A DNA stretch of 32,000 bases. Origin: Candidatus Electronema aureum. Its GTDB lineage: Bacteria; Desulfobacterota; Desulfobulbia; Desulfobulbales; Desulfobulbaceae. The notes under the pieces were generated by a model, which was not told where the DNA came from, searched no databases, and saw nothing but the letters and a program-made list of their open reading frames with translations. Shown here one piece after another: positions 4,829 to 22,980 of this stretch. The position numbers and the translations under genes are program-made. Position 1 is the first letter of the stretch, and every line of letters starts with the position of its first letter. The stretch is taken from the NCBI GenBank assembly GCA_004284765.1, contig NQJD01000001.1, positions 90,001 through 122,000 of the forward strand, in the 5' to 3' direction.

Positions 4829-6940
4829 ATGGCCTTGGAAGTTCTGAGCTTCGTCAAAGCGGCGTGGATAGTGCCGCTCTGGAAGCGGCTTCGCCGAATA
4901 AGAGAAGAGGAAAAGCAGGAGCTGGAACGTCTGCGGGACGAGTTCGTTGATCCTGAAACCCTGCGCGGCCTCTACATTGAGCCGTTTCTGCAAGACCGCA
5001 ACCCGGCTGATGTGCAGCAGGACGATCTGCTGTCTGCGGCCCGGCAGCCTGCCTTTGAGCGGATCAACGAGTTCTTTCAGGGCGGTCTGCCTTTGGAGAA
5101 AGATGGCCGCCACCAGATGTTCATCCTCTCTGATGCCGGGATGGGCAAGACCTCGCTGCTCCTCATGATCAAGCTCATGCACCTGACCAGCTTCTGGCCT
5201 CAAGGGCATGGCTGCGCCCTGTTCAAGCTGGGCGCGGACACCTTGGAGCGGGTGCAGGCTCTGCCGAACAAGGGTGGGACCGTCCTCCTGCTTGATGCCT
5301 TGGATGAAGACCCGCTGGCGTGGAAGCGCATCCGCGACCGCCTGCTGGAGCTGCTGCGGGCCAGCGAGGATTTCCGCCGGGTGCTCATCTCCAGCCGCAC
5401 CCAGTTCTTCCCGGAGATGGAGCCAGACCGCTTTGGCCGCCCGGAGATCAGAGTGCTGTCCGGCTATCACTGCCCGGTGCTGTATCTTTCCCCCTTCACC
5501 GATGCCCAAGCGCAGGACTTCATTGAGCGCAAGCTGCCGCTGCGCTGGCATCATCATCTGCGGCTCCGGGCTGGCACGATCAGGAAGGAGCGGGCCAAGG
5601 CTGACTGTCTGCTCAAGCACATGCAGGATTTGCGGATGCGGCCCATGCTCCTCCAGCATATTGACAAGCTGCTGGCCAAGGACTGCCGCCAAGACTGGAA
5701 CGCCTACACGGTGTACGAGGCCCTGCTGGAGGAATGGCTTGACCGTGAGGTGCGCAAGCTGCGGGAGCAGCACAAGGAGCGGCGCGTCCCTGAGCGCAAG
5801 GAACTCTTTCTGGCCTGCCTGCGGATTGCCGAGCGGATGCAGCGGCAGGGAACGCGGGTCATCTCGGAGGACGAGCTGAAGCAGCTCATCAGTGCGGACG
5901 CGAACATAGCCTGGCTGGAGCAGTTCGAGCTGGGCGGTCGTTCCCTGCTCAATCGCAACTCTGACCGCGCCTTCCGCTTCAGCCATTACACGGTGCAGGA
6001 GTTCCTCTTGGCGTGGGGCATAGTGCATAAGCAGTTGACTGAACAGGAACCGCTGTGGGCCACGGATCAGCTTGTGCGCTTTGTTGATCTTGCTGACGGG
6101 ATATTCAGGCACGTTGATCAGATTGCCTTACCCTGTCCTTTGCCGGAGTCTTTTGGCGGTGGACTCGGAATAAAGATGATACTTATACGCGGCGGTAGTT
6201 TCCGCATGGGAGATATTCAGGGCAATGACAGTGAAGATGAACGGCCTGTACATGAGGTGGAGCTGGACGAGGACGACTTGGACGACTTTTTCTCTTTTGA
6301 AGAAGATGAAGATAAACTGCCAGTGCATGAGGTGGTGCTGGACAGCTTTGCCCTTGGCCGCTATCCAGTCACCTTTGCTGAGTATGATGCCTTCTGTGAG
6401 GCCACAGGTAAAGAAAAACCGAAAGATGAGGGCTGGGGTCGGGCGCAGCGGCCAGTGATCCGTGTGTGCTGGCATGATGCTGTCGCCTATTGTGCGTGGC
6501 TGCGCCAAGAAACTGGTCAGCCCTATCGTCTGCCCACCGAGGCGGAGTGGGAGTATGCCTGCCGGGCAGGCAGCGAGGCGGCTTGGTGTTTCGGAGATGA
6601 TGAGGCTCAACTTGAAGACTATGCTTGGTACAAGAAGAACTCCGGCGATACAACCCATCCAGTTGGCGAGAAAAAGGCCAATGTCTGGGGCCTGCATGAT
6701 ATGCACGGCAATGTCCGGGAGTGGTGTGCGGACTGGTATGATGCTGGTTATTATGCCGTCAGCCCTAAGGACAATCCGCTAGGCCCTGAGAGTGGCTTGT
6801 ACCGCGTGCTTCGCGGCGGTAGCTGGGACAGCACGCCCAAAAGCGTGCGGGCGGCGAATCGCGACGTGAGCGCACCAGGCTTCCGCGACTACGACTTGGG
6901 GTTCCGGCTTGCCCTTTCCTTGCCGCCAGCTCAACGCTGA
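4829..6940 (+). CDS. NACHT (STAND P-loop NTPase) protein with a C-terminal FGE-sulfatase (SUMF1/FGS) domain
   Basis: The ATG at 4829 follows GAAGGAGGGA. NACHT motifs: Walker A LSDAGMGKTSLLL, Walker B VLLLDALDED, and VLISSRTQFF. FGE-domain motifs: RGGSFRMG, LGRYPVTFAEYDAF, RPVIRVCWHDAVAYCAWL, YRLPTEAEWEYACRAG, NVWGLHDMHGNVREWCADWY and RVLRGGSW. Confidence 0.85.
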   Translation: MALEVLSFVKAAWIVPLWKRLRRIREEEKQELERLRDEFVDPETLRGLYIEPFLQDRNPADVQQDDLLSAARQPAFERINEFFQGGLPLEKDGRHQMFILSDAGMGKTSLLLMIKLMHLTSFWPQGHGCALFKLGADTLERVQALPNKGGTVLLLDALDEDPLAWKRIRDRLLELLRASEDFRRVLISSRTQFFPEMEPDRFGRPEIRVLSGYHCPVLYLSPFTDAQAQDFIERKLPLRWHHHLRLRAGTIRKERAKADCLLKHMQDLRMRPMLLQHIDKLLAKDCRQDWNAYTVYEALLEEWLDREVRKLREQHKERRVPERKELFLACLRIAERMQRQGTRVISEDELKQLISADANIAWLEQFELGGRSLLNRNSDRAFRFSHYTVQEFLLAWGIVHKQLTEQEPLWATDQLVRFVDLADGIFRHVDQIALPCPLPESFGGGLGIKMILIRGGSFRMGDIQGNDSEDERPVHEVELDEDDLDDFFSFEEDEDKLPVHEVVLDSFALGRYPVTFAEYDAFCEATGKEKPKDEGWGRAQRPVIRVCWHDAVAYCAWLRQETGQPYRLPTEAEWEYACRAGSEAAWCFGDDEAQLEDYAWYKKNSGDTTHPVGEKKANVWGLHDMHGNVREWCADWYDAGYYAVSPKDNPLGPESGLYRVLRGGSWDSTPKSVRAANRDVSAPGFRDYDLGFRLALSLPPAQR

Positions 6941-6953
6941 AGCGGCCTGCAAG

Positions 6954-7038
6954 CACACCAGTGATGTCCCATCCTCCTCACCAGTGTGCAGCCGCTCTCC
7001 ACACCAGTGATGTCCGCGCCTCGACACTGGTGTGCAGC
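6954..7038. repeat. tandem ~46-bp repeat (two units); the second unit forms a 10-bp hairpin
   Basis: CACACCAGTGATGTCC occurs at 6954-6969 and 7000-7015. The two units end in CACCAGTGTGCAGC (6979-6992) and CACTGGTGTGCAGC (7025-7038). CACACCAGTG (7000-7009) pairs with CACTGGTGTG (7025-7034). Confidence 0.6.
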
Positions 7039-7164
7039 ATCCCACAAAAGGCAGGCCGGAATGACATCTTCTTGCGTTCAGCTCGAACCAGGCGGAAACT
7101 ATTTGCAAAGACTAACACGGCAGTTGCCTGATCTCAATCTCTTCAACCAAGGAACAACAAATCA

Positions 7165-7827
7165 ATGGAACTCATTGCAGAAGTGATTAATTTTGTCCTC
7201 CACGTTGACACCTATCTCGAAAGCATCATCTTGGAGTACGGTGCGTGGACGCTGGCTATCCTTTTTGTCATCGTCTTTCTGGAAACAGGCTTCGTGGTCA
7301 CGCCTTTTCTGCCCGGCGACTCGCTTATTTTCGCTGCGGCTACCTTTGCTGCACGCCCCAGCAGCACTCTTGACCCCTGGTTACTCTTCTTTCTGCTCTC
7401 CATCGCCGCTGTACTCGGTGATACAGTCAATTATTGGATTGGCTATCGCATCGGAGCTAAAGCCTACACCGGTGAAGTTAAGTGGATTAAGAAACAATAC
7501 ATGGAGCGCACCCATGTTTTCTTTGAAAAGCATGGTGGGAGGACAATTTTCCTTGCTCGCTTCGTGCCGATCATCCGTACATTCGCTCCTTTTGTTGCTG
7601 GAGTCAGTCGGATGCCATACGGTTTCTTTATCCGCTGGAACATCATCGGTGGCATTACTTGGGTGGCGGTATTCACGCTCTTGGGTGTATTCTTCGGCAA
7701 TATCCCTTTTGTCCAGAAACACTTTGAATTAGTGATCATCGTCATCATTGTTCTCTCGGTTATCCCGGTAATTATCGAGGCAGTGAAGGCACACCGAGAG
7801 TTCCGCCAAGAGAAAAGCAAAGACTGA
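7165..7827 (+). CDS. dedA: DedA-family inner membrane protein
   Basis: Carries the DedA signatures VTPFLPGDSLIFAAATF and FLARFVPIIRTFAPFVAGV and has a multi-TM profile. Confidence 0.85.
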   Translation: MELIAEVINFVLHVDTYLESIILEYGAWTLAILFVIVFLETGFVVTPFLPGDSLIFAAATFAARPSSTLDPWLLFFLLSIAAVLGDTVNYWIGYRIGAKAYTGEVKWIKKQYMERTHVFFEKHGGRTIFLARFVPIIRTFAPFVAGVSRMPYGFFIRWNIIGGITWVAVFTLLGVFFGNIPFVQKHFELVIIVIIVLSVIPVIIEAVKAHREFRQEKSKD

Positions 7828-7854
7828 GTTGCGGGAGGAATAGCGGCGGTAGGG

Positions 7855-8250
7855 TCATGACGCGCCGTGACCCTGCTCCACCGTGCAGAACTCTTCCTGT
7901 CCCCAGTCGCTGCGAGTAACCGGCCCCAAGCCATGCGCGGCACGCGCTCGATTGCAGTCTTCATTCACTACGCCGTCAAGCAGAGAAGGCTGAAAGGCAC
8001 GGCAGACCGAAGAGCGTTGTTCGTAAATGCCACAGGCTACGCTCTTACCTATCTCGCCGGTTAAGGCGATGCAGCGCGGCTGTAGTCCTCTGGTACCTTT
8101 CATCTGCACCCGGAAGTCGTTGATTTTCTCGGTGAGATGATCAGGTACGCCGCCGGGACTGCCCGCTTCGGTCTCTGCCCAGTAAAAGGAGGCCCGGAAG
8201 AAGGCGCAGCAGGCTCCGCAGGTCAGACAAGGATTGCTGATTGTTTTCAT
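7855..8250 (-). CDS. YkgJ-family cysteine-cluster (Zn/Fe-chelating) protein
   Basis: CLTCGACCAFF (the CxxCGxCC motif) lies near the N-terminus and further Cys residues follow downstream. Start trimmed to the ATG at 8250 (MKTISNPC..). Confidence 0.65.
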   Translation of the reverse strand: MKTISNPCLTCGACCAFFRASFYWAETEAGSPGGVPDHLTEKINDFRVQMKGTRGLQPRCIALTGEIGKSVACGIYEQRSSVCRAFQPSLLDGVVNEDCNRARAAHGLGPVTRSDWGQEEFCTVEQGHGAS

Positions 8251-8433
8251 AGTGGTTGCAGGAAAGGCAGAAGGAGTGATGCTGAATACGGGCAAGCATA
8301 GAGTTTGCCGCTCACCGGGTCAAGGGGAAAAATTCCTTGCTGCGGGGCAACGGAATTTGCTAAGGTGCTGTGCGGGCTGCGCTCAAACGCGGCTGTTTTT
8401 GTCCCAAATCGTTTCTCTTTTCCCCGGCTCTTG

Positions 8434-8811
8434 ATGTCCCGGCGCAAACACTTATCCACTGAACATAAACACAGCAACGACGAGCCAGACAGCAGCTTTT
8501 CCTTTCAGCTCAGTCTGAGTGGGATTGTCGGTATCGCAGTGGTGCTGTTTTGTCTCTTCCTTTGGATGTTCCTCATAGGCATTTGGGCCGGGCAAACTAT
8601 CCTCTATCCACCGTCCCAACCGCTTGCGAAGGCAGCTGTATCGCAATCGCCTTCAGTCAAAAGCGAGGAAACACGTCGCCCGGCGAAACCTCTTACCCTT
8701 TCCCCAGAACCAGAACCGCTGCCGGAATCGGAAGGAGTCCTCATCCTACCTGGAGAACGAAAGCGGCGGATCGCTCCACCGAATATACCTGTTGCTTCTC
8801 CAGCGCAGTGA
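8434..8811 (+). CDS. hypothetical single-pass membrane protein with a Pro-rich tail
   Basis: From the ATG at 8434 (MSRRKHLSTEHKH..) there is one TM helix (IVGIAVVLFCLFLWMFLIGIWAG) and then a Pro/Ser/Glu-rich low-complexity tail. No family recognised. Confidence 0.45.
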   Translation: MSRRKHLSTEHKHSNDEPDSSFSFQLSLSGIVGIAVVLFCLFLWMFLIGIWAGQTILYPPSQPLAKAAVSQSPSVKSEETRRPAKPLTLSPEPEPLPESEGVLILPGERKRRIAPPNIPVASPAQ

Positions 8812-8953
8812 ACAGTGAAAACGCCTCATTCTTCTGATATCACGGTATAATCATCGGAATGCTTGACCAAATGCCACTGAAGGGTTAAGGTGAATAATTT
8901 TCACCTGTTCCCGGCCAGTCTCGGCCTCGTCTGTACTACCACGAATCTGCACG

Positions 8954-9442
8954 ATGATCATGAACGGAGCCACTGTTACACTCACATCGACGAAAATTCG
9001 TCCGGCCCACATGGGTGATGTCAAAATCATTCATACCTTGCTCCAGCAATTTGCTAATCGGGGCTTGCTCTTGGGTCGCTCGATCAGCTCGCTCTACGAT
9101 CAGCTGCGTGATTTTGTCGTTTATGACGACAACGGAGTGCAGGGAGTTTGCTCTTTGCATATTTGCTGGGATAATTTAGCAGAAATCCGCTCGTTGGCTG
9201 TGGTAGAGAGTAGTCAAGGTCAAGGCATAGGCCGTGAGCTGGTTTCCGCCTGCTTAATCGAAGCGCAAAAATTGGAGATCAACAGGGTCTTCACCTTGAC
9301 CTACCAAGGTGGTTTTTTCAGAAAATTGCACTTTGCACCCATTGAAAAAAGCGAATTGCCGCATAAAATATGGAGCGACTGCATTCAGTGTCCTAAATTC
9401 CCGGACTGCGACGAAGAAGCGCTGATCTGGATCAACGATTAA
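8954..9442 (+). CDS. GNAT-family N-acetyltransferase, short N-acetylglutamate-synthase-like type
   Basis: Contains the acetyl-CoA binding motif region [17 protein letters not shown] (Q/RxxGxG/A). Size and layout are typical of a GNAT protein. Confidence 0.75.
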
Positions 9443-9488
9443 TCCTGGCGGCGCGGAGTCAAATGAGTTCCGCCTGCGGAGAACAAGC

Positions 9489-12032
<2,544 letters not shown>

Positions 12033-12044
12033 TAGGTAGTACAC

Positions 12045-12254
12045 CTATTCCATCAAATGCACCCGCTCGCAGTCTGGGCATATCCAAGTGGGGCCGTTGC
12101 TCATGCCCCACTTGTTTTCGGTAAAGCAATCAGGGCAGATGGCAAAGCCGCAGGTGCAAGTCCAACAGAAAGGCACTTGTTTCGTGCAGCAATGGCAGGT
12201 GTCGCCGTCGATACGTCTGCGACGACGTTTTCGGGGTGAATACTCGTCAGTCAT
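12045..12254 (-). CDS. small Arg-rich, Cys-rich (zinc-ribbon-like) protein, 69 aa
   Basis: The sequence is PRKRRRRRIDGDTCHCC..CWTCTCGFAICPDCF..WICPDCERV. Its ATG overlaps the cbiO stop (ATGA at 12251-12254), which suggests translational coupling. Confidence 0.55.
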   Translation of the reverse strand: MTDEYSPRKRRRRRIDGDTCHCCTKQVPFCWTCTCGFAICPDCFTENKWGMSNGPTWICPDCERVHLME

Positions 12255-12985
12255 CGTTGGTGTTCGTGGGGTCGGTCGCCATATGTGTGAACATGATGGT
12301 GGCTATGCAGACATTCGGTACCACTGCGCAGCGCACATCCTTCGCTTAACGTATATATCTCATCGCAGGTTTCAGCGAGAAAGTCCCAGTCATGCGAGAT
12401 GATCATGTAGCCGATCTCCAGCCGGTTGAGAATGCTGATCAGGCGAGTGCGGATATTGCTGTCGAGGTTGTTGGTTGGTTCATCTAAGAGCATCGCTTCT
12501 GGCTGCATAGACAAGATCGTGGCTAAGGAAATCAGCTTTTTCTCGCCGCCAGAAAGCTGATGTGTAACTCTCTCTGCCAAGGCGGAGAGACCAAGATCAG
12601 CTAATGTTTGGCGAGAGATACGCAGGGCTTCTGCTGGGTTCATGCCGAGATTGAGCGGGCCAAAGGCAATATCTTCAATCACCGTGGGCGAAAAAAGTTG
12701 GTCATCGGCATCTTGAAAGACCAAACCGATGCTTCGGCGTAGCTTGCGGAATTCCTCTTTACTGCTGATCTCTTGGCCCTTAAACAGCAGCCTCCCTGCT
12801 GTGGGTCGCAGCAGTCCCATGATGATATGCAGCAATGTGGTTTTGCCGCTACCGTTCGGGCCAATCAAACCAATACGCTGGCGATAATCCAGCGTCACGT
12901 CTGCTTGGTTGAGCAGCAGATGGCTGCTACCGGGATAGGCAAAAGATACCTGCTGAAGCTGGATAAGGGTTGGGTTAGCGGGCAT
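12251..12985 (-). CDS. cbiO: ECF/Cbi-Nik type ABC ATP-binding protein (CbiO/NikO) with a His-rich C-terminal tail
   Basis: Walker A GPNGSGKTTLL, signature LSGGEKKL and Walker B MLLDEPTNNLD. The tail reads ECLHSHHHVHTYGDRPHEHQR. Confidence 0.85.
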   Translation of the reverse strand: MPANPTLIQLQQVSFAYPGSSHLLLNQADVTLDYRQRIGLIGPNGSGKTTLLHIIMGLLRPTAGRLLFKGQEISSKEEFRKLRRSIGLVFQDADDQLFSPTVIEDIAFGPLNLGMNPAEALRISRQTLADLGLSALAERVTHQLSGGEKKLISLATILSMQPEAMLLDEPTNNLDSNIRTRLISILNRLEIGYMIISHDWDFLAETCDEIYTLSEGCALRSGTECLHSHHHVHTYGDRPHEHQR

Positions 12986-13050
12986 GTTGCTTTGAGTTAG
13001 TCGGTTGCATAAAGATTGATAGCAGCTCGTTAGTGAAGATGGGCATGAGC

Positions 13051-13464
13051 TTACCGGGAAGCCGCTGCTGCTGGGCGCGGCAGCTTCTTGGCCTTTGCCG
13101 CTGCAACCTTGTAGGGCTGAATCAGCACGTCCGCCGCAATGCCCAGTCCTGTATGCAGCTTTTGAATCATGGGTAGCGACAGGGAACGCTGCCGGTTGAT
13201 GATCTCGGCCACCCGCGCCCGTGTGCCGATAAATGGCTCTAAATCTTTCCGTGACAAGCCCCGGCTTTCCATCTGGTAGAGAATAGCCTCAACTGGATCA
13301 GGCTTGGGCAGATCGTAACGACCTTTCTCGTAGGCTTCAACCAAAATGGTCAGCATGTTCAGCTGGTCGCCGTCAGCAGTGTCTGCTTCCGCTGCAAACA
13401 GCCGCTCTATCTCCGCCAAAGCCTGCTGATACTCTGCTTCCGACCGGATTGGCTTCATATCCAT
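13051..13464 (-). CDS. higA: HigA-family antitoxin (XRE-type HTH)
   Basis: MKPIRSEAEYQQALAEIERLF.. followed by the HTH region LSRKDLEPFIGTRARVAEIINRQRSLSLPMIQKL. It lies 12 nt downstream of higB with a GAGGAG SD, so the order is toxin first, as in higBA. Confidence 0.8.
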   Translation of the reverse strand: MDMKPIRSEAEYQQALAEIERLFAAEADTADGDQLNMLTILVEAYEKGRYDLPKPDPVEAILYQMESRGLSRKDLEPFIGTRARVAEIINRQRSLSLPMIQKLHTGLGIAADVLIQPYKVAAAKAKKLPRPAAAASR

Positions 13465-13476
13465 AACTTGTTCTCC

Positions 13477-13770
13477 TCACACGCTGGCTGCATCAACAGC
13501 ATCGTATTCCGCATGAGTGCCGACAAAGCGGATATAGACGATGCTGTATTCGTAGTGAATAGCCACAATCACGCGGTACTTGTTGCCTTTGATGTTGAAC
13601 ACCGCCCGGTTGTTGGCAACAAAGCTGACGTTGCGGTACGCATTCTTCACATCCGCAGGCGACTTCCAGTCCGCTTGTTGCACGTCCGTATGCCATGACT
13701 GCAAGGCTTGCTGCGCATCAGCATGTTTTTCCCAGAATTCCCGGAGAGTCTTTTTGGCAATGATCCGCAT
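13477..13770 (-). CDS. higB: HigB-family toxin (RelE-like mRNA interferase)
   Basis: From the ATG at 13770: MRIIAKKTLREFWEKHADAQQALQSWHTDVQQADWKSPADVKNAYRNVSFVANNRAVFNIKGNKYRVIVAIHYEYSIVYIRFVGTHAEYD. This is the typical HigB_toxin pattern. Confidence 0.8.
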   Translation of the reverse strand: MRIIAKKTLREFWEKHADAQQALQSWHTDVQQADWKSPADVKNAYRNVSFVANNRAVFNIKGNKYRVIVAIHYEYSIVYIRFVGTHAEYDAVDAASV

Positions 13771-13776
13771 GAGAAC

Positions 13777-13804
13777 ATTATACGCTAATCCCTTAGCGGG
13801 AACA
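13777..13804 (-). promoter_or_regulatory. putative higBA promoter (TTGTTC-17-TATAAT) with an overlapping operator palindrome; possibly a leaderless transcript
   Basis: On the minus strand TATAAT (13777-13782) lies only 6 nt before the higB ATG. The inverted repeat CGCTAA-GGGA-TTAGCG (13783-13798) fills the spacer. Confidence 0.45.
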
Positions 13805-13913
13805 AAACAGTGCTTCAGCCATGTGCTTTTCTCCGGTTGCTCCAAGTTGTATGCTTGCAAAGCTGGGCTACAAGGCAACAGCACGGTAGAGGTAGGCTGG
13901 GTTTTATTTTATA

Positions 13914-14285
13914 CTACGATGCTGGTGGCATTATTAATACAACCAGTGGATCTTCTTTTATTCGTTTTATCAATCTTTTAAGTTCGCCATCACTTGTTGA
14001 GTTTGGATAACGCAAACTACTAACAATATCCCACAATACAGTTCCACTTCTAAAAAACCTCACGCACTCTCCTGCCTCATCGATAGATGGGAAAACACGA
14101 ACACCAAGGTCTGATAAAGCTTCTTGTATCCCCTCGCGCGCACTTTTAGCTAAACGAATAGAATCGTCTTGCGCAGCAGTTCTATACATTAATTGCAATT
14201 CGCTATATTGAATTGTAATAAAGCTGTAATTCCCTTGGTCCATACGATATTTTATTTCTTTAGCTACTTTTCTAAAAACTTCCAT
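13914..14285 (-). CDS. hypothetical protein (123 aa), AT-rich gene
   Basis: The ATG at 14285 follows AGAGG (the ORF track starts 2 codons earlier at a TTG). Begins MEVFRKVAKEIKYRMDQGNYSF... No motif recognised. Its composition differs from the GC-rich gene immediately upstream (14424-15494). Confidence 0.5.
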   Translation of the reverse strand: MEVFRKVAKEIKYRMDQGNYSFITIQYSELQLMYRTAAQDDSIRLAKSAREGIQEALSDLGVRVFPSIDEAGECVRFFRSGTVLWDIVSSLRYPNSTSDGELKRLIKRIKEDPLVVLIMPPAS

Positions 14286-14423
14286 AGTCAAGACCTCTTT
14301 GTTTGATTATTCTTTGCACATAACAAGATAACAGCTCTACCTTCCCTGCAATATGCAGGACATCCAAACCAAGCTGGGGAAAGCCCCCGCCCTCCCCAAC
14401 TTTCACCCTTCCAACCCCCTATC

Positions 14424-15494
14424 CTACACCTCCAAATCCAAAATATCCACCAGCCTGCCGTCGTAATCGTTGCGAATCATCGTTCTGAGCGCGGCGTAGT
14501 TGTTGACCTTGATCTTCAAGCTGCTCACGGCGGAACCGGCAAAACCGGGCAGCGTGAATTCCCCGTTCGCGGTCACGGGCACCATGCCGCCGACCGCGCC
14601 GCCGTCGCGCATGGCAATCAGCCGGAATGAGAGCTGATTTTCCTGCACACTGGCATCTGCCTGAATGCGCAGCCGCTCGCTGGCCGAGAGGGTGCAGGCG
14701 GTGATGCTGACATGCGGCGTAGCCGCGCTGCCGGTGAGAATGCCGGTCTCCGGCGGGTTCGGATGATCGAGATTGACGGCGGTCAGCGGCGAGCGCAGCT
14801 TGCGTCCGTAGGTGCCGCTGCGCAGCGAGCCGTGCTCGGTGTAGCGCGTCGTGACCGACACCGTGTACTCGTTGTTCCAAGGATGGGCTTGGGCCGGAAT
14901 GTGCGGCACCAGCAGGATTTCCGTGTCGCTGACGCTGGCGAGCTGGCTTTGTTTCTCGCTGCCGCTACGGGTGCCTTCGATGACACAACCACAGTCCGGC
15001 TTTTTCGGGTCAAAGAGCAGATTGCTGCCGGTCAGCCGGAGCACGCCGTCCGGGTTGAGGACATTGTTCAGCTCAAGCGTGGTGTCTGCGGCGGAGAGGA
15101 TGGACGGGGCCTTTTCCTCGGTCGAAACCCGTTCCAAGGTCACGTTCTGCTGCACATATTGGACAAAGGGGCGCGTGGCCGAGACGCTGATCCGCAGCAG
15201 CTCGCTGACCGGCGGCAGCGGGTCAGCCGGGCTGTTCAGCTTGCCACGGAAGGCGGGGGCGAAGGTCAATGCCTCCTCCAGCGTGACCTGCATCCCGTTG
15301 CAGAGCATCTCTTTGATATTCTTCATTGTTGACTGAATGGAGGCCTTGGCCTGCTCCGCGCTCAGGCCGGTGTCTTTGGCAACGGCGGCGGCCAGCTCGT
15401 CATAGCCCGCTGTCTGCTTCGGCATGAAGCGCAGCTTGTAGGATGCAGGTTTGGTCAGAGGATTCGGCTCGACGCGGTATTGCACAGTTCCCAT
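14424..15494 (-). CDS. HU-like (HU-HIG type) DNA-binding domain protein with a C-terminal Ig-like DUF4469-like region
   Basis: The N-terminus VQYRVEPNPLTKPASYKLRFMPKQTAGYDELAAAVAKDTGLSAEQAKASIQSTMKNIKEMLCNGMQVTLEEALTF matches the Bacteroidota-type HU-like pattern. A later segment, LRLTGSNLLFDPKKPDCGCVIEG, resembles DUF4469. A GGAGGG SD precedes the ATG. Confidence 0.6.
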   Translation of the reverse strand: MGTVQYRVEPNPLTKPASYKLRFMPKQTAGYDELAAAVAKDTGLSAEQAKASIQSTMKNIKEMLCNGMQVTLEEALTFAPAFRGKLNSPADPLPPVSELLRISVSATRPFVQYVQQNVTLERVSTEEKAPSILSAADTTLELNNVLNPDGVLRLTGSNLLFDPKKPDCGCVIEGTRSGSEKQSQLASVSDTEILLVPHIPAQAHPWNNEYTVSVTTRYTEHGSLRSGTYGRKLRSPLTAVNLDHPNPPETGILTGSAATPHVSITACTLSASERLRIQADASVQENQLSFRLIAMRDGGAVGGMVPVTANGEFTLPGFAGSAVSSLKIKVNNYAALRTMIRNDYDGRLVDILDLEV

Positions 15495-15554
15495 GATGCC
15501 CTCCGTTCTGGTTTTTCAGATATTGATACAACGAGTTGCGGCTGATCAAAAGCC

Positions 15555-15583
15555 AAGATACGGCGGAGACTGCGCTTTGTCAA
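15555..15583 (-). promoter_or_regulatory. sigma70-type promoter (TTGACA-17-TATCTT) for the HU-like gene
   Basis: On the minus strand TTGACA (15583-15578) and TATCTT (15560-15555) are separated by a 17-nt spacer, about 60 nt upstream of the ATG at 15494. Confidence 0.5.
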
Positions 15584-15621
15584 TAAAATAGGGCGCGGCG
15601 AGGGAAGGAGACGGGCGGCAA

Positions 15622-15730
15622 AATACATACTGGTATGTATTGAGGAAACATACTGTATAGTTTTCCCGGAACATACCAGTATGTATTGGCGGAACATACT
15701 GGTATGTATTTGGGATACTATTCGGTATGT
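15622..15730. repeat. array of 4-5 palindromic sites, core ACATAC-N2-GTATGT
   Basis: AATACATACTGGTATGTATT (15622-15641); a degenerate site AACATACTGTATAG (15647-15660); GGAACATACCAGTATGTATTGG (15668-15689); GGAACATACTGGTATGTATTTGG (15691-15713); and a degenerate site GATACTATTCGGTATGT (15714-15730). Confidence 0.8.
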
Positions 15731-15755
15731 TTTTTGGGGGAGGTGGGGCGAGGGT

Positions 15756-16481
15756 TTAAGGCTGGGGTGCGAGGTTAATCAACCTTGCCATGGAACAACG
15801 AATATAACTTTCATTTTCCTTATCCCAATCTGTCATTATTCCTATTAATTTACTGGAAAAACCAGATGATCCATTGCTTGATAATTCAATAACAGGCCCT
15901 CCCGACATACCATTGGGATTTGGAGCTGTACTTTGTGACCCATCACAACGGGGTACTTTTTTCTTTTGAAATTTACAGAAAAAGTGTACTTCTTGATGAA
16001 CTTTCTTGATAGGCTGCGAAGGAAAATCTATAATTTTTGTTAACATATAAAAAGGCTCAACAAATGTTCCTTTGCTCGATATTGAAACCTTACTTTGAGG
16101 GTAGCCAAGCAAAAGAATACTATTTTCAGATCGATTAACTATAGAGTCACTTATCAATTCAATAGGAGAAAAAAATTCCAACTCTTCTGTTAAATAGACA
16201 AGAGAGATATCAACATCAGCCTCGTTGCAAGATATTTTCACCGCTTGATCTATAGGGATACTTGCAAGTTCCTCTCTCCTCAGAGGAATGATATTCTTTG
16301 CAAGCTCCTCATGGTCAATAACATGAGATGCTGTTGCCAAGTAATATTTATCCTTTATTTTTAGATAGACAGCACATCCTGAATATTCATATTTTCTTTT
16401 TATAGTTCCTATCCTGTAGACAGGAACAACATGTTTTTGAATATTCAGAAGAACTGGTTCGTACTGCTTGTAGTCAAACAT
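15756..16481 (-). CDS. trypsin/chymotrypsin-fold serine protease without a signal peptide, AT-rich gene
   Basis: The catalytic triad motifs appear in H-D-S order: LATASHV (His), DVDISLVYL (Asp) and NGMSGGPV (Ser). The N-terminus MFDYKQYEPVLLNIQKH is not hydrophobic. Confidence 0.7.
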   Translation of the reverse strand: MFDYKQYEPVLLNIQKHVVPVYRIGTIKRKYEYSGCAVYLKIKDKYYLATASHVIDHEELAKNIIPLRREELASIPIDQAVKISCNEADVDISLVYLTEELEFFSPIELISDSIVNRSENSILLLGYPQSKVSISSKGTFVEPFYMLTKIIDFPSQPIKKVHQEVHFFCKFQKKKVPRCDGSQSTAPNPNGMSGGPVIELSSNGSSGFSSKLIGIMTDWDKENESYIRCSMARLINLAPQP

Positions 16482-16699
16482 ATTTTAGCCGTGTAGTGTG
16501 TAGAGTCATGTATGGTGCGGCACCCCGCACCAGAAAAGGTGCATGGAAAACCATAAGTCGGGGTAAGCGCAATGAACCGCGACAAGAAAGCTACCTGATT
16601 AACAGTGCTGTGGTCAACAGGAAAACTTCAGCAATGCAGTTGCACGGCTGCGGCCACCGATGCGAATTGAAGGAATGCCATTGCACTGAACGCAGCTTG

Positions 16700-17452
16700 T
16701 CAGCCTATCAGCTCCAACACCACGAGCAATAACGCTGTCAACAAAAGGCCAGCCATAAGCAAGACATCATTGCGATGCAACTCCGTTGGTTCAAGGCTAT
16801 GAAAGGTACCGGAGAAGCCGCGCAGCAGCATTGCCTGCTGCACTCGTGCCGCTCGGTTCCAGCTGCGTACAATCACCATGCCCAGTAAATGGCCGTAGGT
16901 TCGGTACGTGTGCAGATTGGTGCGCGGATGGAAGCAACGTAGCTCTGCCGCCCGATGCAGGCGAAGAAACTCCTCGTGAATCAGACCGAGATATCGGTAG
17001 GAAAAAAGCAGAAGCAAGCAAAGACGCGGTGAGAGGCGCAGCAGTTGCAGACTATGCCCAAGACGTGCCACGGTGGAAGTGGACAACAAGCTAATGAAGA
17101 GCAGCACCGCTGCATTGCCCTTGATTGTGATCAGCGCAGCTAACCGCAGCCCGGTTAGGCTGAGATTAAGACCAGCAAAGCGCACAACCTCTGTTCCGCC
17201 ATAGGTCAGGGGGAGTAGCAGCCAAAGCAGCGCGTTGAAACTGTTGACGATCAGGAGCCGCCGGAGAATTGCTGCCCAAGACAGTCGTGCTGCCGCTGTC
17301 AGCAGCACGGACAAGAGCAACCCAGCAAAGGCAGTGCGGAAATTCTGACTGAGAGCGATGAGCAGACTGAGAACTACCGCACTGATCAGCTTACTGCGTG
17401 GGTCGGCCCGATGCAGGAATGAGCTGCCCGTGCTGAATTGTTCAAAGGTGAT
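16700..17452 (-). CDS. cbiQ: ECF transporter transmembrane (T) component CbiQ/NikQ; start codon uncertain and apparently non-canonical
   Basis: The frame stays open upstream of the ORF-track TTG (17320) as far as TAG at 17474-17476. That extension encodes a typical CbiQ N-terminus (..ITFEQFSTGSSFLHRADPRSKLISAVVLSLLIALSQ). An AGGAGGG SD precedes ATC ATC at 17455/17452. Confidence 0.75.
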   Translation of the reverse strand: MTFEQFSTGSSFLHRADPRSKLISAVVLSLLIALSQNFRTAFAGLLLSVLLTAAARLSWAAILRRLLIVNSFNALLWLLLPLTYGGTEVVRFAGLNLSLTGLRLAALITIKGNAAVLLFISLLSTSTVARLGHSLQLLRLSPRLCLLLLFSYRYLGLIHEEFLRLHRAAELRCFHPRTNLHTYRTYGHLLGMVIVRSWNRAARVQQAMLLRGFSGTFHSLEPTELHRNDVLLMAGLLLTALLLVVLELIG

Positions 17453-17532
17453 GATACCCTCCTGTGTACGGTGCTATCACCAGCAGCGTATCGGTGTTGT
17501 AACGCAGAAATGTTGAAATCACCAAGCAAAGA

Positions 17533-17575
17533 ACAGACCTCCTGCTGCGGATGTTTCTTCCTTCAGGAGGTCTGT
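17533..17575 (-). terminator. intra-operon hairpin between nikK and cbiQ, a possible attenuator or partial terminator
   Basis: ACAGACCTCCTG (17533-17544) pairs with CAGGAGGTCTGT (17564-17575) to give a 12-bp perfect stem. On the minus strand it is followed by TCTTTGCTT. Confidence 0.4.
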
Positions 17576-17586
17576 GTCAGCAGAGC

Positions 17587-18360
17587 TTATTTATTCTTGT
17601 AGGAATCAAGATAGATCCATAGAACTGCGCCTAACTCCACGCCCTTTTCTTCGCCTGCTGGATTCTTCAACTTGTAGTCTGCCTCATTCAGAGCAGCAAA
17701 GCCCCACCAACCCGGCTGCGGACAGGCAAAAGTGAACACGCCGTTCTCGTCGGCCTTAACTACCTGAGTGACATGATAGTCGCTGGGAGCTGCAAATTTC
17801 TTCTCCTTGTTGTACAGCTCGACCTCAACCTCAGCACCGGGTACTGGCTTACCGTTGAGCAGCACTTTGCCGCTGAAGCTGTTGCCTGCATAGTTGCCGA
17901 AAGGTCGAGTCAGCGGCACAATCTCGGTAGGAATACCGAGCGGTTCGTCCCAACCTTGGTCATCACCGAACGCAGCAATCAAGGTCTTGGTGTAATGAAT
18001 GATACTCAGGTCTTCGGCAGGCTCCCAGTACGGAGTTGGCTCCATGACAAAGCCATACACGCCCGGCTTTTTGATGGCTACGTCAGTGGTCCAGGCTTGG
18101 TGATCAATGGCCTTGCTTTCCTTGAGGTTGCCCAGCAGATCAGTTTTTTCCCCTTCAGCCAGCATGTAGAAGGCTTTGGGTTTGACTAAATCCATGCCGA
18201 TCATCTCGAAAGGATGAGAGAAAGAAAGATCAACCGTGACGTTCTTCTTAGCTGGGGTGACAATGTTCTCTGAGGGAATCACCATGCCGAAGTGGGCAAA
18301 GGCATTGCCCGTCAGTAAGAGGCAGAGGGCGGCGGTCATGGATGCGGCTTTGATTTGCAT
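17587..18360 (-). CDS. nikK: periplasmic DUF4198 protein (NikK/CbiK-like Ni/Co transport accessory component)
   Basis: The ATG at 18360 follows AAGGAG. The signal peptide is MQIKAASMTAALCLLLTGNAFA followed by HFGMVIP. Size, beta-rich sequence and its position inside the cbiM..cbiQ operon all fit. Confidence 0.7.
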   Translation of the reverse strand: MQIKAASMTAALCLLLTGNAFAHFGMVIPSENIVTPAKKNVTVDLSFSHPFEMIGMDLVKPKAFYMLAEGEKTDLLGNLKESKAIDHQAWTTDVAIKKPGVYGFVMEPTPYWEPAEDLSIIHYTKTLIAAFGDDQGWDEPLGIPTEIVPLTRPFGNYAGNSFSGKVLLNGKPVPGAEVEVELYNKEKKFAAPSDYHVTQVVKADENGVFTFACPQPGWWGFAALNEADYKLKNPAGEEKGVELGAVLWIYLDSYKNK

Positions 18361-18413
18361 TGTTATTGCTCCTTTTTTGGTACAGGTGGATATAAAAGAA
18401 CGGGCTTCCCCGT

Positions 18414-18992
18414 TCAGGAAATACTCTTTCTGCGACTCGCCCAAGCAGCCATGCCAGCTATTCCGAGTATCCAGCCGATGCCGCCAAGGATGTCACGCAG
18501 ACCCGGCTCTGGGTTGATGCTTTCAGCTAAACTCTGGCGGATGGGCGATAATCCCTTACTTAGTTCTTCAGCAACAATACGCCGAAGTTGCGACTCATTG
18601 ACTGCAACAGCTGACGACGCTGAAGCCTGTGCTGGAGGTGCTGTATCACTGATGACTGCGGCATATTCTTTTGCCTCCAAGAGCCATTCGCCGCGATGTC
18701 CTTCACCGCCGTTAGCAATGATGAGCAGGTCAGGCTTTGTTTTCATGGTTTGTTCCGGCAGAGTAAGGCGGAAGTCTCCTTTCTCATCGCAGACTGTTTC
18801 GGCCACGATGCTGCTATCCAACCTGTTCTGCACGACAATATTGACGTTTTTTGCCTGCCTACCGCCGCTGAACTTCACTTCACCACGAATCTCGCTGCCT
18901 TCTGGCCAAGCAAAAATGCTCAGTTTGTGTGCCTGTGCGGACAGCGGCAGAAGAAGAATGAGCGCGAGGCAGAAGAGAGAGGAATGTTTCAT
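18414..18992 (-). CDS. exported accessory protein with a C-terminal membrane anchor (NikL-like)
   Basis: The signal peptide MKHSSLFCLALILLLPLSAQA is followed by HKLSIFAWPEG. There is a C-terminal TM helix, ILGGIGWILGIAGMAAW. Its start overlaps the cbiM stop by 4 nt. Confidence 0.55.
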   Translation of the reverse strand: MKHSSLFCLALILLLPLSAQAHKLSIFAWPEGSEIRGEVKFSGGRQAKNVNIVVQNRLDSSIVAETVCDEKGDFRLTLPEQTMKTKPDLLIIANGGEGHRGEWLLEAKEYAAVISDTAPPAQASASSAVAVNESQLRRIVAEELSKGLSPIRQSLAESINPEPGLRDILGGIGWILGIAGMAAWASRRKSIS

Positions 18993-19594
18993 AATGCGGC
19001 CTTGACGTGGAGGATTTCCGGTTGCACTTTGACAATGAAACCAATCGTGAACAGGGTGATGCAGCCTTCTATCACCATGACTGGTAGATTGGCGATAATA
19101 ATCGCCTGTGCCGCCGTTGTGAAACCCTCATCAGACAAGCTGAGGGCTAAGGCGGTCAGCAGTGAGGAAAACAAAATGGAAAGCGAGCCAGCAGTAAAGG
19201 CGGCGATAGGCCGAGTGCTTGGGGTTTCTAACCAACGCCGGGCGAGGTAATGGCAGCAAAGGGCCGGAGCCGCCATCGTCACGGTGTTCACACCCAACAC
19301 CGTCAGGCCACCGAATTGGAAAAAAACCGCCTGAAGAAACAGCCCGATTAGGATAGCGGGAAAGCACGCCCAGCTCAAGACCAAGCCAAGTAAGCCACTC
19401 AAGACTAAATGCACCGAGCCAGGGCCAATCGGGACATGCACGAGACTGGCGACAAAAAAGACTGATGACAGCAAGGCCGCTGGCATGATTTCGTCTATAT
19501 CAATCCGGCGCAGACCAATGACCGTGCCGACTGCGGCCAGCACTCCGCCGCTGATGAGTACCGGTGCGGAAAGCACCCCTTCAGAAATGTGCAT
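18989..19594 (-). CDS. cbiM: ECF substrate-specific component CbiM/NikM
   Basis: Has the canonical N-terminus MHISEGVLS (the Met-His metal-binding end) and multiple TM helices. A GAGGGAG SD precedes the ATG. Confidence 0.88.
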   Translation of the reverse strand: MHISEGVLSAPVLISGGVLAAVGTVIGLRRIDIDEIMPAALLSSVFFVASLVHVPIGPGSVHLVLSGLLGLVLSWACFPAILIGLFLQAVFFQFGGLTVLGVNTVTMAAPALCCHYLARRWLETPSTRPIAAFTAGSLSILFSSLLTALALSLSDEGFTTAAQAIIIANLPVMVIEGCITLFTIGFIVKVQPEILHVKAAL

Positions 19595-19814
19595 GGCTCC
19601 CTCTTAGAAGAGAATAATACCCGTTAAACATTCGTCGTATTCATACTACTCATACCTAATGCACTGTGGGAATTTTGTCAAGCCGGAGTTGTGTAATTTC
19701 TTGGTTGTGCTGAAGGTGGGCAATAGAGTATTTCAGTTTTTAGATCGTCTTGAAAACCGTCTCGACGCAAACGCTTAAACTCTTGATGCCGTCAGCTATT
19801 TTTTTTACTTTAAA

Positions 19815-20435
19815 CAAGTAAACCCCCGGCTCTGCCGGGGGACTCCCGAAGTTTGACAGTTCCGGGAAAATATGGAAGTCTCGCTATTCTGAACCGCTCA
19901 AAGTTCAAGAAGAGGAGACTTCCATGTACGACAGCCAAAGTCTAAGCCACACCAAGTGGGAATGCAAGTATCACATTGTCTGGATACCAAAATACCGCAA
20001 GAAAGCTCTCTTTGTCGAGTTGCGGAAATACTTGGGAGAAATCTTGAGGGAGCTGGCCAAGCAAAAAGAATGCGAGGTGCTGGAGGGGCATCTCATGCCT
20101 GACCATGTGCATATCATGCTTTCCATACCGCCCAAGTATTCGGTGTCTCAAGTCGTTGGATTCATCAAAGGCAAGAGCGCAATCCAGATTGCCCGCAACT
20201 TCCAAGGGAGAAGAATTTCGTTGGTCAGAATTTCTGGGCCAGAGGTTATTATGTTTCAACAGCTGGAAAGGACGAAGAAGTCGTGAGAGCATACATTCAA
20301 GCTCAGGAGAAGGAAGACCAGCGTCTTGAGCAGCTCAACCTGTTTGAATAGCGGCTGCCTTCAGGCAGCTCAAGTTGTTTAACCGCTTTGAGCGGTTCAG
20401 AATCTCAAGCCACCGGCTTTGCCGGTGGTACTTGA
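19815..20435 (+). mobile_element. IS200/IS605-family insertion sequence (IS200-like, tnpA only)
   Basis: Similar subterminal hairpins sit at both ends: CCCCCGGCTCTGCCGGGGG (19823-19841) and CCACCGGCTTTGCCGGTGG (20410-20428). A perfect 17-bp inverted repeat pairs 19887-19903 with 20386-20402. A 5' stem, GGAAGTCTC (19874-19882) with GAGACTTCC (19915-19923), occludes the SD as in IS200. Confidence 0.8.
19924..20351 (+). pseudogene. tnpA: IS200 tnpA (Y1 HUH transposase) disrupted by a 1-nt frameshift
   Basis: The N-terminal 95 aa or so are typical (KYHIVWIPKYRKK, HUH motif DHVHIMLSIPP). After ..ARNFQG near 20205-20215 the conserved C-terminus KNFVGQNFWARGYYVSTAGKDEEVVRAYIQAQEKEDQRLEQLNLFE continues in another frame to TAG at 20349-20351. 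The total length of 428 nt is not a multiple of 3. Confidence 0.8.
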
Positions 20436-20478
20436 CTAACAACTAGACAAAAGTTGCACTTACAACTTGAATTCACCC

Positions 20479-21942: not shown

Positions 21943-22551
21943 TCAGAAGCCGGGCTGTTCTGACTGCGTTCCGTCTTGGGATTTGATCCTGTCCATCTCG
22001 CTGCGAAAGCAGTCCGGGCAGTAATTGTGCGAGCAGTCAACATCCCAGCTGTTTTTGAAATAGGATTCAACCTTGGTCCAAGTTTTGTCCTCATCCTGCA
22101 TTTTGCCGCAGACCGGGCAGATGAAAATCATCCGGTAGAGCGCGGCAATCTCGCTGATGTCTTCAATCACCAGCAAGGCGTGATCCTTTCCCTCGAAAGC
22201 AAAAAGCGAGACCGTGACCAAGCCGTACATCTCGCGCTTGCTGCCGCTGCGGAGCAGCTCAATCTTGGCCCGGCGGCGGACAACCCGCTTGCCTGCAAAG
22301 GCAAGATTGACCGAATTTCTGATGATGCAATCTTTGCACGAGGAGGAATGGCCGCAGCCTTGGGGCACTTCATCGGAATGAATACAGTGGAGAATTTCAC
22401 CGGCCCGCCGCCGCAGGATGGTCTCCCGCTCGGCCATCATCAGCTCGGCAGCCGCCGCGTTGTACTCCTGAATTTGTACGTCCCGGTCAACCACAAAAAC
22501 CAGCGAGGGAAGTGCGTCAAATACTGCTCTGAGCAAGGTACGCTCATTCAT
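21943..22551 (-). CDS. PAS-domain protein with a Cys/His cluster and a C-terminal zinc-ribbon
   Basis: From the ATG at 22551: MNERTLLRAVFDALPSLVFVVDRDVQIQEYNAAA (PAS N-cap); HCIHSDEVPQGCGHSSSCKDC; and the C-terminal ICPVCG..(27 aa)..YCPDCF. Confidence 0.6.
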   Translation of the reverse strand: MNERTLLRAVFDALPSLVFVVDRDVQIQEYNAAAAELMMAERETILRRRAGEILHCIHSDEVPQGCGHSSSCKDCIIRNSVNLAFAGKRVVRRRAKIELLRSGSKREMYGLVTVSLFAFEGKDHALLVIEDISEIAALYRMIFICPVCGKMQDEDKTWTKVESYFKNSWDVDCSHNYCPDCFRSEMDRIKSQDGTQSEQPGF

Positions 22552-22659
22552 GGTATTTAATGCGGTATTGCGAAAAGGCATTAGAGGGTTAATAAAGTTC
22601 TTAGGAAGAAGCAGATACATTCCATATTTTATTATGGATAAATTACCCGGCTGTCTGCT

Positions 22660-22980
22660 TCAATTTTCAATAATTTCCGTTTTTGCAATTCGGCAACGAT
22701 TGCCTCCTGATCTTGTTCTGAAATACCACCTTGAAACTGATACATTGCCCGAATTGAATTCAGCAAGCTTTTCTATCCGTTCCATAACGTACTCTATGGA
22801 ATTCTTCTCGGACGCGGCGGTTTCTTTATAACTCTCTTCTTTGCTGATGCCAATTCTGTTCTGCGGATTATGGATTTCCTCTTCTTTTCGTGCAATTTGG
22901 ATAAGAAGCTGCGCGAGACGAAACTTGTCTCTGTATCCTAACAGCTCGCATCCTTTTACGATTTCGTCGTATCCCATCAT
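22660..22980 (-). CDS. hypothetical protein (about 106 aa), AT-rich gene
   Basis: The ATG at 22980 follows GAGGAAAA (the ORF track starts at GTG 23001). No motif recognised. Confidence 0.4.
   Translation of the reverse strand: MMGYDEIVKGCELLGYRDKFRLAQLLIQIARKEEEIHNPQNRIGISKEESYKETAASEKNSIEYVMERIEKLAEFNSGNVSVSRWYFRTRSGGNRCRIAKTEIIEN

Follow-up and report, generated by a model that had tools for sequence, protein, structure and literature searches.

A probable composite islet in the cbiQ-cbiO spacer of the nickel transporter operon of Candidatus Electronema aureum

Importers of nickel and cobalt of the group I energy-coupling factor (ECF) type, NikMLKQO and CbiMNQO, have been described as a defined set of subunits encoded in a defined gene order in one uninterrupted operon (Rodionov et al. 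2006, reference 81 of PMC11247825). It has been reported that cable bacteria need unusually much nickel for the Ni-containing cofactor of their conductive fibres (PMC11247825). Table S6 of that paper lists one nik set for the genome of Candidatus (Ca.) Electronema aureum, with CAK8717587 as its nikO. In this study, we analyzed a stretch of 32,000 nucleotides (nt) of this genome (contig NQJD01000001.1, positions 90,001 to 122,000, of assembly GCA_004284765.1), hereafter the window. The full NikMLKQO component set (M, L, K, Q and O) is encoded there, and both the subunit set and the gene order are those of the described transporters. However, the genes do not form one uninterrupted operon, since 3.7 kb with five genes lie between cbiQ (nikQ) and cbiO (nikO), and a 134-nt spacer with a hairpin lies between nikK and cbiQ. 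Comparison with related loci indicates that the 3.7-kb segment is a real, lineage-specific insertion into the nickel ECF operon. We give a probability of about 0.7 to the reading that it is a composite islet without an integrase, inserted in the E. aureum lineage into the cbiQ-cbiO spacer of a once contiguous operon that ran from nikM through nikO to zn69, a gene for a Cys-rich protein of 69 amino acids (aa).

The cbiQ-cbiO gap and the operons of relatives

The islet is 3.7 kb long and holds five genes between cbiQ, which ends at 16700, and cbiO, which starts at 12985, on the minus strand. An earlier sequence-only reading of the window had placed there a protease gene, an HU-like gene, an open reading frame (ORF) of 123 aa, higB and higA, all in one direction. 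Profile searches back these identities, and the gene order and coordinates of that reading were all reproduced on the minus strand by ORF calls and profile searches (Table 1). The spacers from cbiQ to higA measure 218, 261, 138, 143 and 12 nt, and a further 65 nt separate higA from cbiO. The matches to CbiM, NikL, DUF4198 and Pfam CbiQ pass their cut-offs. The NCBIfam cbiO models match the CbiO of the window below their cut-offs; the protein is complete, with all ABC motifs present, and its best relatives are annotated nickel/cobalt ECF ATPases. The closest of these all come from cable bacteria (Electronema and Electrothrix), the nearest being P0002 with 88% identity.

About 110 loci were compared (P0002, the close HigA relatives and the HU copy of Electronema sp. 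V4 are not among them). In about 35 related loci, cbiQ and cbiO are only 15-130 nt apart. The Electronema-clade assembly GCA_026645415.1 (L096/L097) carries cbiM-nikL-nikK-cbiQ, a spacer of 36 nt, cbiO and the 69-aa gene, and its proteins are 80% (CbiO), 73% (CbiQ) and 79% (NikK) identical to those of the window. In the metagenome contig L090, which is 72-77% identical, the cbiQ-cbiO spacer is 28 nt. Table S6 of PMC11247825 gives consecutive accessions for nikM/L/K/Q/O of Ca. E. halotolerans, a numbering which implies that nikMLKQO is contiguous there; in Ca. E. aureum the same table shows a six-gene step from nikQ (CAK8717617) to nikO (CAK8717587). The segment is read as an insertion relative to the ancestral operon, as had been proposed, because cbiQ and cbiO are 28-36 nt apart in L096 and L090 and the numbering in Ca. 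E. halotolerans implies a similar arrangement.

The sequence-only reading had named two findings that would overturn an insertion: the same five genes conserved between cbiQ and cbiO of relatives, or a second cbiO elsewhere, with this ATPase belonging to another transporter. Neither was seen. None of the approximately 110 loci has the five genes in that gap, the nearest homologues of the ATPase lie in nikMLKQO operons, and a single nikO is listed for the genome (PMC11247825, Table S6).

The premise that cbiO normally follows cbiQ was found to hold in general but not within the cable-bacterium clade. The cbiO-zn69 pair is unlinked from cbiQ in five cable-bacterium loci (Electronema sp. VV, Electronema sp. 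TJ, L006, L008 and L009). In VV, cbiO starts 1 nt after the dut stop codon (L095, 9999-10001), and in TJ a fused ybeY/pdxJ gene ends 10 nt before it (L098, 7302-7312); in both it is grafted tightly onto a housekeeping operon. In three Electrothrix/Desulfobulbaceae loci, cbiO comes after lpxK-lpxC (L006, L009) or after usp (L008). Because cbiO stands apart from cbiQ in several cable bacteria, the nickel system can evidently be kept when the ATPase gene is unlinked. Furthermore, cbiQ is followed in L093 by a convergent M16 peptidase gene and not by cbiO, and in L094 it has no upstream nikK. These observations could also be explained by a rearrangement, in which cbiO-zn69 is a wandering pair that lay, or was re-joined, 3.7 kb downstream of cbiQ by a pre-existing islet. 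The pair is found in at least four other contexts (dut, ybeY/pdxJ, lpxK-lpxC and usp), two of which place cbiO just 1-10 nt after the upstream stop codon, and the arrangements of L093 and L094 fit such wandering. However, the order and orientation of cbiQ and cbiO-zn69 in the window are exactly those of the intact L096 operon, and a chance re-joining in the same order, on the same strand and in the same vicinity is much less parsimonious than an insertion. We regard a rearrangement as quite unlikely and prefer the insertion of an islet.

The 69-aa gene was found by tblastn directly after cbiO in L006, L008, L009, L095, L096/L097 and L098. It follows cbiO in every cable-bacterium locus that was examined downstream of cbiO, including those with an unlinked cbiO, and no tblastn match was obtained in the more distant non-cable loci examined, such as L007 and L010-L015. 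In the alignment, the N-terminus is basic and the Cys pattern, CHCC...C.xC.CGF.ICPxCF.EN.WG.SNGPTW.CPDC.R.H, is invariant. The zn69 product may be an unrecognised partner of the ATPase or an accessory subunit of the transporter. The C-terminus of CbiO itself (12251-12310) is rich in His, HSHHHVHTYGDRPHEHQR, a tail also present in Electronema sp. VV, which suggests metal binding by the ATPase subunit.

Table 1. Features of the nickel transporter locus and of the segment between cbiQ and cbiO (positions in the window)
Feature	Position	Strand	Evidence and remarks
cbiM/nikM, S component of Ni/Co ECF transporter	18989-19594	-	Pfam CbiM E 3e-55; NCBIfam NF004905, 284 bits, above cut-off
nikL	18414-18992	-	NCBIfam NF058648, NikL family, E 3e-50, above cut-off
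nikK, DUF4198 periplasmic component	17587-18360	-	Pfam DUF4198 E 2e-62; 257-aa product in public annotation
12-bp hairpin ACAGACCTCCTG / CAGGAGGTCTGT, 19-nt loop, then T-rich TCTTTGCTT	17533-17575	-	read from sequence
cbiQ/nikQ, T component	16700-17452	-	Pfam CbiQ E 2e-22
E1, conserved element of about 45 nt, TTTCCATGCACCTTTTCTGGTGCGGGGTGCCGCACCATACATGACTC	16503-16549	-	just upstream of first cargo gene; blastn, alignment
Probable chymotrypsin-fold serine protease, 241 aa	15756-16481	-	Pfam Trypsin_2 E 3.5e-5, below cut-off
Palindromic boxes ACATACnnGTATGT	15621-15732	-	three exact and one degenerate, phased 23 nt; repeat search
HU-HIG/DUF4469 protein, 356 aa	14424-15494	-	N-terminal HU/IHF-like fold and immunoglobulin (Ig)-like beta-domains; Pfam, AlphaFold model
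3' flank of HU gene, conserved, with weak terminator-like hairpin (14376-14388)	14338-14423	-	blastn, alignment, terminator scan
ORF123, winged-helix-like	13914-14285	-	no Pfam, PADLOC or PHROG match
E2, vapB-type antitoxin leader and first 9 codons (MAEALFCSR*)	13805-13877	-	92% over 73 nt to L112 4314-4386
higB toxin, 97 aa	13477-13770	-	Pfam HigB_toxin E 6e-33; PADLOC PD-Lambda-2_A 6e-43
higA antitoxin, 137 aa, helix-turn-helix	13051-13464	-	Pfam HTH_3 23.7 bits (cut-off 23); PHROG 1373, transcriptional regulator
cbiO/nikO ATPase	12251-12985	-	Pfam ABC_tran E 5e-31, full-length match
zn69, 69-aa Cys-rich zinc-ribbon-like gene	12045-12254	-	overlaps cbiO stop codon by 4 nt; no Pfam match

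Make-up of the islet and its counterparts in cable bacteria

Parts of the segment were found by blastn in other cable bacteria. Positions 16549-14338 of the window, which cover E1, the protease gene, the boxes, the HU gene and its 3' flank, are 80% identical over 2274 nt to positions 1627-3873 of L112, where this 2.2-kb protease and HU block lies behind rfbC. For the HU module by itself, matches were obtained in L099 (83%) and L101 (84%), where its surroundings are different. E1 forms the left edge of homology with the other HU islets; it is also found ahead of the protease gene in L112 and ahead of an unrelated CoiA-like gene in L099. The 3' flank of the HU gene forms the right edge of the block common to L112.

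The arrangement between cbiQ and cbiO in the window is protease, HU, ORF123 and higBA. In L112, rfbC is followed by the protease gene, HU, an ORF of 110 aa and a vapB-like and a PIN-like ORF, after which the contig ends with the downstream flank not seen. Between serC and a duplicated serC 3' end, L099 has the CoiA-like gene, HU and a DUF6794 gene. The islet of L101 lies between glnS and a metallophosphatase gene and consists of a HEPN-MNT pair, a 194-aa ORF, HU, an 88-aa ORF and hicAB, and that of L100, between a PKD-repeat gene and a response regulator, consists of two small ORFs, HU and two ORFs. Thus, the neighbours of the HU gene differ in each of the four cable-bacterium genomes with context on both sides, and the cargo beside it is non-homologous between genomes and often includes toxin-antitoxin pairs. 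Because of these differences, the segment in the window would be one copy of a variable, relocating "HU islet".

The same contexts bear on whether the inserted genes could be new parts of the nickel system, with the HU-like protein or ORF123 as regulators of the operon, or with the protease processing a transporter component. The genes run in the direction of the operon, and two of the products have predicted DNA-binding folds. However, the HU-like gene, the boxes and the protease gene adjoin serC, glnS, rfbC and PKD-repeat genes elsewhere, not nik genes, and none of the other nik operons examined contains islet genes. A role in nickel transport is therefore highly improbable.

The composition of the segment was then compared gene by gene. 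The sequence-only reading had described a mosaic based on hand counts of 19 G+C at 15961-16020 and 40 G+C at 14761-14820; both counts are right, and the mosaic is borne out by the GC content of the genes and of their third codon positions (GC3). GC and GC3 are 0.355 and 0.28 for the protease gene, 0.376 and 0.27 for ORF123, and 0.62 and 0.81 for the HU-like gene. For higB and higA, GC is 0.52-0.57 and GC3 0.64 and 0.63, and the flanking nik genes have GC of 0.52-0.56 and GC3 of 0.52-0.63. A compositionally foreign look is limited to the protease gene and ORF123, and higBA is host-like. High GC of the HU gene as a sign of recent transfer was rejected. It is a property of the family, since the genes of the window, L099 and Ca. 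E. halotolerans (L100) all have GC3 values of 0.79-0.81. The idea of one accessory segment that is foreign throughout, which had been drawn from the GC mosaic, was not upheld: the HU gene belongs to a cable-bacterium family with identities of 55-95%, and higBA resembles the host. The region of the window is patchy in composition overall, and two further stretches fall below 40% GC in 300-nt windows (background 54%), at about 22500-23200 and 25500-26300. These are probably more foreign genes.

No recombinase, no defined ends such as att sites or inverted repeats and no convincing target-site duplication were found for the segment. In agreement with the sequence-only reading, no integrase or transposase domain was found in the five islet proteins (Pfam, NCBIfam, PADLOC and PHROG searches), and the tRNA scan found no tRNA gene anywhere in the window. 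Nothing convincing in the way of flanking direct or inverted repeats was found at the segment edges. Direct repeats at the two junctions, for which that reading had proposed to look, do not exceed chance length, the only shared sequence being the pentamer AAGCT. The exact junctions could not be mapped, since even at the closest empty sites protein identity is only about 72-80%, and the DNA between the genes aligns unreliably. The nearest transposase gene is a Y1 gene (19924-20286) outside the segment, 3.2 kb from its left edge. It belongs to an IS200-type insertion sequence (IS) element at 19886-20437, which lies about 290 nt upstream of cbiM and carries inverted repeats of 18 nt (19886-19903 / 20386-20403). 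From 2251 to 20437, the window is collinear with the closed genome OW818638.1 at an identity of 99.98%, and the two are completely different beyond 20437; the break reflects a structural variant or else a join made in assembly at the IS copy.

Horizontal transfer of all five genes at once on one mobile element of foreign origin (a decayed integrative element or a transposon, for example) is implicit in the sequence-only reading. It would explain why they are co-directional and confined to one gap, why GC3 is 0.27-0.28 in two of the genes when that of the host is about 0.6, and why a toxin-antitoxin pair, a typical cargo of mobile elements, is present. On the other hand, no integrase, transposase, tRNA or terminal repeats accompany them. 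The largest gene comes from a cable-bacterium-wide family and has the codon composition typical of that family, and the GC3 of higBA is host-like. Moreover, HU occurs without the other islet genes in L099, L100 and L101, protease and HU occur without ORF123 or higBA in L112, and the truncated vapB leader shows the replacement of one module or more, either at this site or earlier, before the segment arrived. We consider a single transfer unlikely and favour a composite islet.

The HU-like protein scores 24.8 bits with Bac_DNA_binding (cut-off 22.4), 23.2 bits with DUF4469 (cut-off 22.6) and 25.6 bits with HU-HIG, just below the cut-off of 26.2. At E<=1e-5 it has 944 homologues. The best 120 of these 944 are 54-94% identical, most are about 355-360 aa long, and the named ones are from Electronema or Electrothrix. 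Its AlphaFold model has a predicted local distance difference test score (pLDDT) of 83 and finds its best PDB match in 4FMR (BVU_2165, a Bacteroides protein with HU and Ig-like domains; Foldseek E 8e-11), and classical HU/IHF proteins match the N-terminal 90 or so residues of the model. A literature search found no paper that mentions DUF4469 or the locus tags. The protein is 95% identical in Electronema sp. V4, which also has a 63% paralogue, and 93% identical in Electronema sp. VV, whose CbiO is 78% identical. The high identity of HU against the lower identity of CbiO hints at exchange between Electronema species, although it is not proof. A second, truncated HU copy lies elsewhere in E. aureum (CAK8719891 / P0285; 161 aa, 99% identical over the first 130 residues) and may explain short-read contig breaks at about 15705 and 14350. 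The short-read contigs break at about 13846 as well, and candidate causes of the three breaks are repeat copies and heterogeneity.

The palindromic boxes are located 131-213 nt upstream of the HU-like start codon, with 3 matches against 0.02 expected by chance. L099 (7765-7870) also has three boxes, the nearest likewise 131 nt from the HU start. The ACATACnnGTATGT boxes look like an operator, either of another regulator or of the HU-like protein itself. They are followed by a promoter-like TTGACA-17-TATCTT at 15583-15555 (promoter scan). The sole match of the RNA-family scan near the segment was a chance match of a microRNA model on these boxes.

For the protease, the Trypsin_2 match reaches 25.0 bits, under the cut-off of 27.6; the motifs ATASHV and GMSGGP are readable, and no PDB relative was found by sequence. 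Close homologues number only 6 in a set of 5.8 billion proteins, all 75-98% identical. Among the PADLOC models, the protein matches the N-terminal effector domain of LmuA at 1e-11 (positions 6-180 of 425) and RT-Protease at 3e-5. Lamassu consists of the LmuA effector and the SMC-like ATPase LmuB, with LmuC optional. Membership in Lamassu was rejected, as the match covers the N-terminal domain of LmuA only and the segment has no SMC-like gene. A phage or plasmid origin was also rejected: matches of the protease there are only 22-28% identical, and the HU gene has no relative in IMG/VR. ORF123 falls into a family of 37 clusters, in which the motifs G-x-R-x-F-P and V-R-x-x-R-x-G-T are conserved. 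Its model has a pLDDT of 92, and the structural matches are weak and of the winged-helix type (E >= 0.09).

In L112, E2 runs into an 84-aa gene, which is followed by an ORF read from sequence as a toxin of the PIN/VapC type. Further copies of E2 are present in L101 (one) and L111 (two). In the window, E2 is cut to nine codons just before higBA and is the scar of an earlier toxin-antitoxin module. The toxin-first order is a hallmark of higBA, and here the HigB_toxin gene lies directly upstream of the helix-turn-helix gene with a gap of 12 nt. PD-Lambda-2 is described as a system of three genes, and PADLOC-DB has models for its components A and B, the latter of about 400 positions. Membership in PD-Lambda-2 was rejected, since HigA matches the B model only at 1-125 of 402 and no further component was found among the neighbours. 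In the whole segment, PADLOC detected no complete known defence system.

These results suggest that the islet would be a patchwork of self-contained expression units and not one foreign element. The first unit would be the low-GC serine-protease gene behind E1, and the second the HU-HIG/DUF4469 gene, which has a promoter, operator-like boxes and a terminator-like hairpin to itself. The low-GC, winged-helix-like ORF123 would form the third, and the truncated vapB-type leader (E2) followed by intact higBA the fourth. We infer that recombination by the host, and not a recombinase encoded on an element, put the islet in place, and higBA may help to retain it.

Long repeats were observed at two other HU islets. 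In L099, the 3.1-kb islet lies between two direct copies, 95% identical, of 290 nt from the 3' end of a gene for a serC-like aminotransferase (6165-6454, 9554-9843). This repeat looks like the footprint of a single-crossover integration. In L111, the protease gene is followed by an HU gene that is broken by nested insertions (DUF4365, HNH, cupin and other genes), and direct repeats of HU pieces, of 295 and 183 nt, bound the inserts (867-1155/3235-3529; 1191-1373/6891-7053). Such long repeats of target sequence would fit a single crossover with circular DNA. The copy in the window has no long direct repeat of the L099/L111 kind.

A broader proposal, which we put forward only tentatively and hold to be possible rather than probable, is that the HU gene and its boxed promoter are the core of a previously undescribed type of small, recombinase-less islet. 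Taken jointly, its parts are that the HU islet changes its chromosomal position between genomes, that low-GC cassettes and toxin-antitoxin modules are swapped beside E1 and E2, and that the islet may move between Electronema species. Campbell-type homologous recombination may be involved, leaving the 290-nt repeats of L099/L111, and landing between nikQ and nikO with recombination between copies could explain why nikO is frequently unlinked.

Several points weigh against a composite islet inserted into a once contiguous operon. The nearest empty sites are no closer than about 80% CbiO identity. The AAGCT found at both junctions is too short to tell from chance, and L096 and L090, which are empty sites, have it after the cbiQ stop as well. 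L093, the closest locus by NikK (89%), has no cbiO after cbiQ, and therefore insertion and rearrangement may have come in either order in this sub-lineage. Finally, with five or six contexts at hand, the differing neighbours of the HU gene could be explained by poor synteny of IS-rich genomes and not by mobility of the islet.

Expression of the transporter genes

The genes cbiM to cbiQ had been described as contiguous. This did not hold strictly at the last junction, where the 134-nt spacer with its 12-bp hairpin parts nikK from cbiQ. In L096 and L090, nikK and cbiQ overlap, without such a spacer. The hairpin and the T-rich tract after it may act as an internal terminator or attenuator of the nik operon. 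At the start codon position of cbiQ (17450-17452) the window has ATC, 5 nt after an AGGAGG Shine-Dalgarno sequence, and no ATG, GTG or TTG is found there. Five relatives read ATG-ACC/ACT-TTT/TTC-GAG-CAG/CAA-TTC at this position, and the window and an independent Logan contig (L087) read ATC-ACC-TTT-GAA-CAA-TTC. The divergent relative L094 (2390-2420) has GGAGGG-CATCATC in common with this region of the window. That cbiQ is a pseudogene was considered and not adopted, as its frame is unbroken, the ATC comes after a strong Shine-Dalgarno sequence, and GGAGGG-yATCATC is also found in L094. Since L094 has this sequence too, the ATC is suggested to be a tolerated, perhaps conserved, non-canonical start rather than the mark of a dead gene.

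The insertion would be tolerated if co-transcription of cbiO with cbiQ is dispensable for the transporter, a view suggested because cbiO-zn69 is unlinked from cbiQ in five other cable-bacterium loci. The terminator scan found no terminator-like site between higB and cbiO. A promoter-like TTGTTC-17-TATAAT, read from sequence, precedes higB, with the TATAAT at 13783-13778, and ends 7 nt before its ATG. Because of these two observations, cbiO-zn69 is probably transcribed together with higBA or by read-through from the HU gene. The earlier suggestion that cbiO depends on read-through or on the higBA promoter is plausible.

That nickel and not cobalt may be the substrate is indicated indirectly, by the presence of NikL and NikK, by the His-rich CbiO tail and by the lack of a cobalamin riboswitch. 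The RNA-family scan found none in the window, and none ahead of cbiM. The same window contains a c-di-AMP riboswitch of the ydaO/yuaA type (2422-2558, 91.8 bits), upstream of a gene for a 668-aa amino-acid permease (2626-4632).

Ca. Electronema aureum GS is the freshwater model strain, and in GS the ATPase gene of the only NikMLKQO importer is cut off from its operon by an islet that bears a toxin-antitoxin pair. The split by the islet and the non-canonical nikQ start bear on the expression and regulation of nickel uptake, and on how transcriptome and proteome data of this locus are read.

Comparison with known systems

As an event, the insertion is ordinary and of a known kind; its place is of biological interest. 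Public annotation already contains the gene layout implicitly. Two leads are less ordinary, the HU-centred variable islet and the wandering nikO-zn69 pair. Compared with the NikMLKQO transporters of group I, the operon of the window differs in the 3.7-kb break between Q and O, in the ATC at the conserved start of cbiQ with a hairpin spacer upstream, and in the 69-aa Cys-rich gene coupled to nikO. For a group I ECF transporter, it is unusual that nikO, which this small Cys-rich gene always accompanies, is so loosely linked across the clade. PMC11247825 is silent on the interruption, the ATC start, the hairpin spacer and the Cys-rich gene.

The putative higBA pair resembles type II HigBA systems in its toxin-first order and 12-nt gap. 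It is distinct in that it lies inside a transporter operon just upstream of the ATPase gene and after a vapB-type scar. The HU-like protein shares with BVU_2165-type proteins (4FMR) an HU/IHF-like N-terminal fold that is followed by a beta-sandwich. Its identity to 4FMR, aligned over about 245 columns, is just 16-17%, and with 356 residues its model exceeds the roughly 235 of 4FMR by about 120. It forms a subfamily specific to cable bacteria, in which GC3 is about 0.8.

The HU islets as a whole resemble integrase-less genomic islets and hot spots of the defence-island kind, in which variable, compositionally foreign cargo and toxin-antitoxin pairs gather round a conserved anchor. Cargo of the HU islets includes the Lamassu/RT-protease-like protease, the CoiA-like gene, DUF4365 and HNH genes. 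Through the variable islets centred on HU, gene exchange in the uncultured, IS-rich genomes of cable bacteria becomes accessible to study. The HU islets differ from known islets in that the anchor is an HU-HIG/DUF4469 gene with promoter boxes of its own, and in that the anchor itself changes position.

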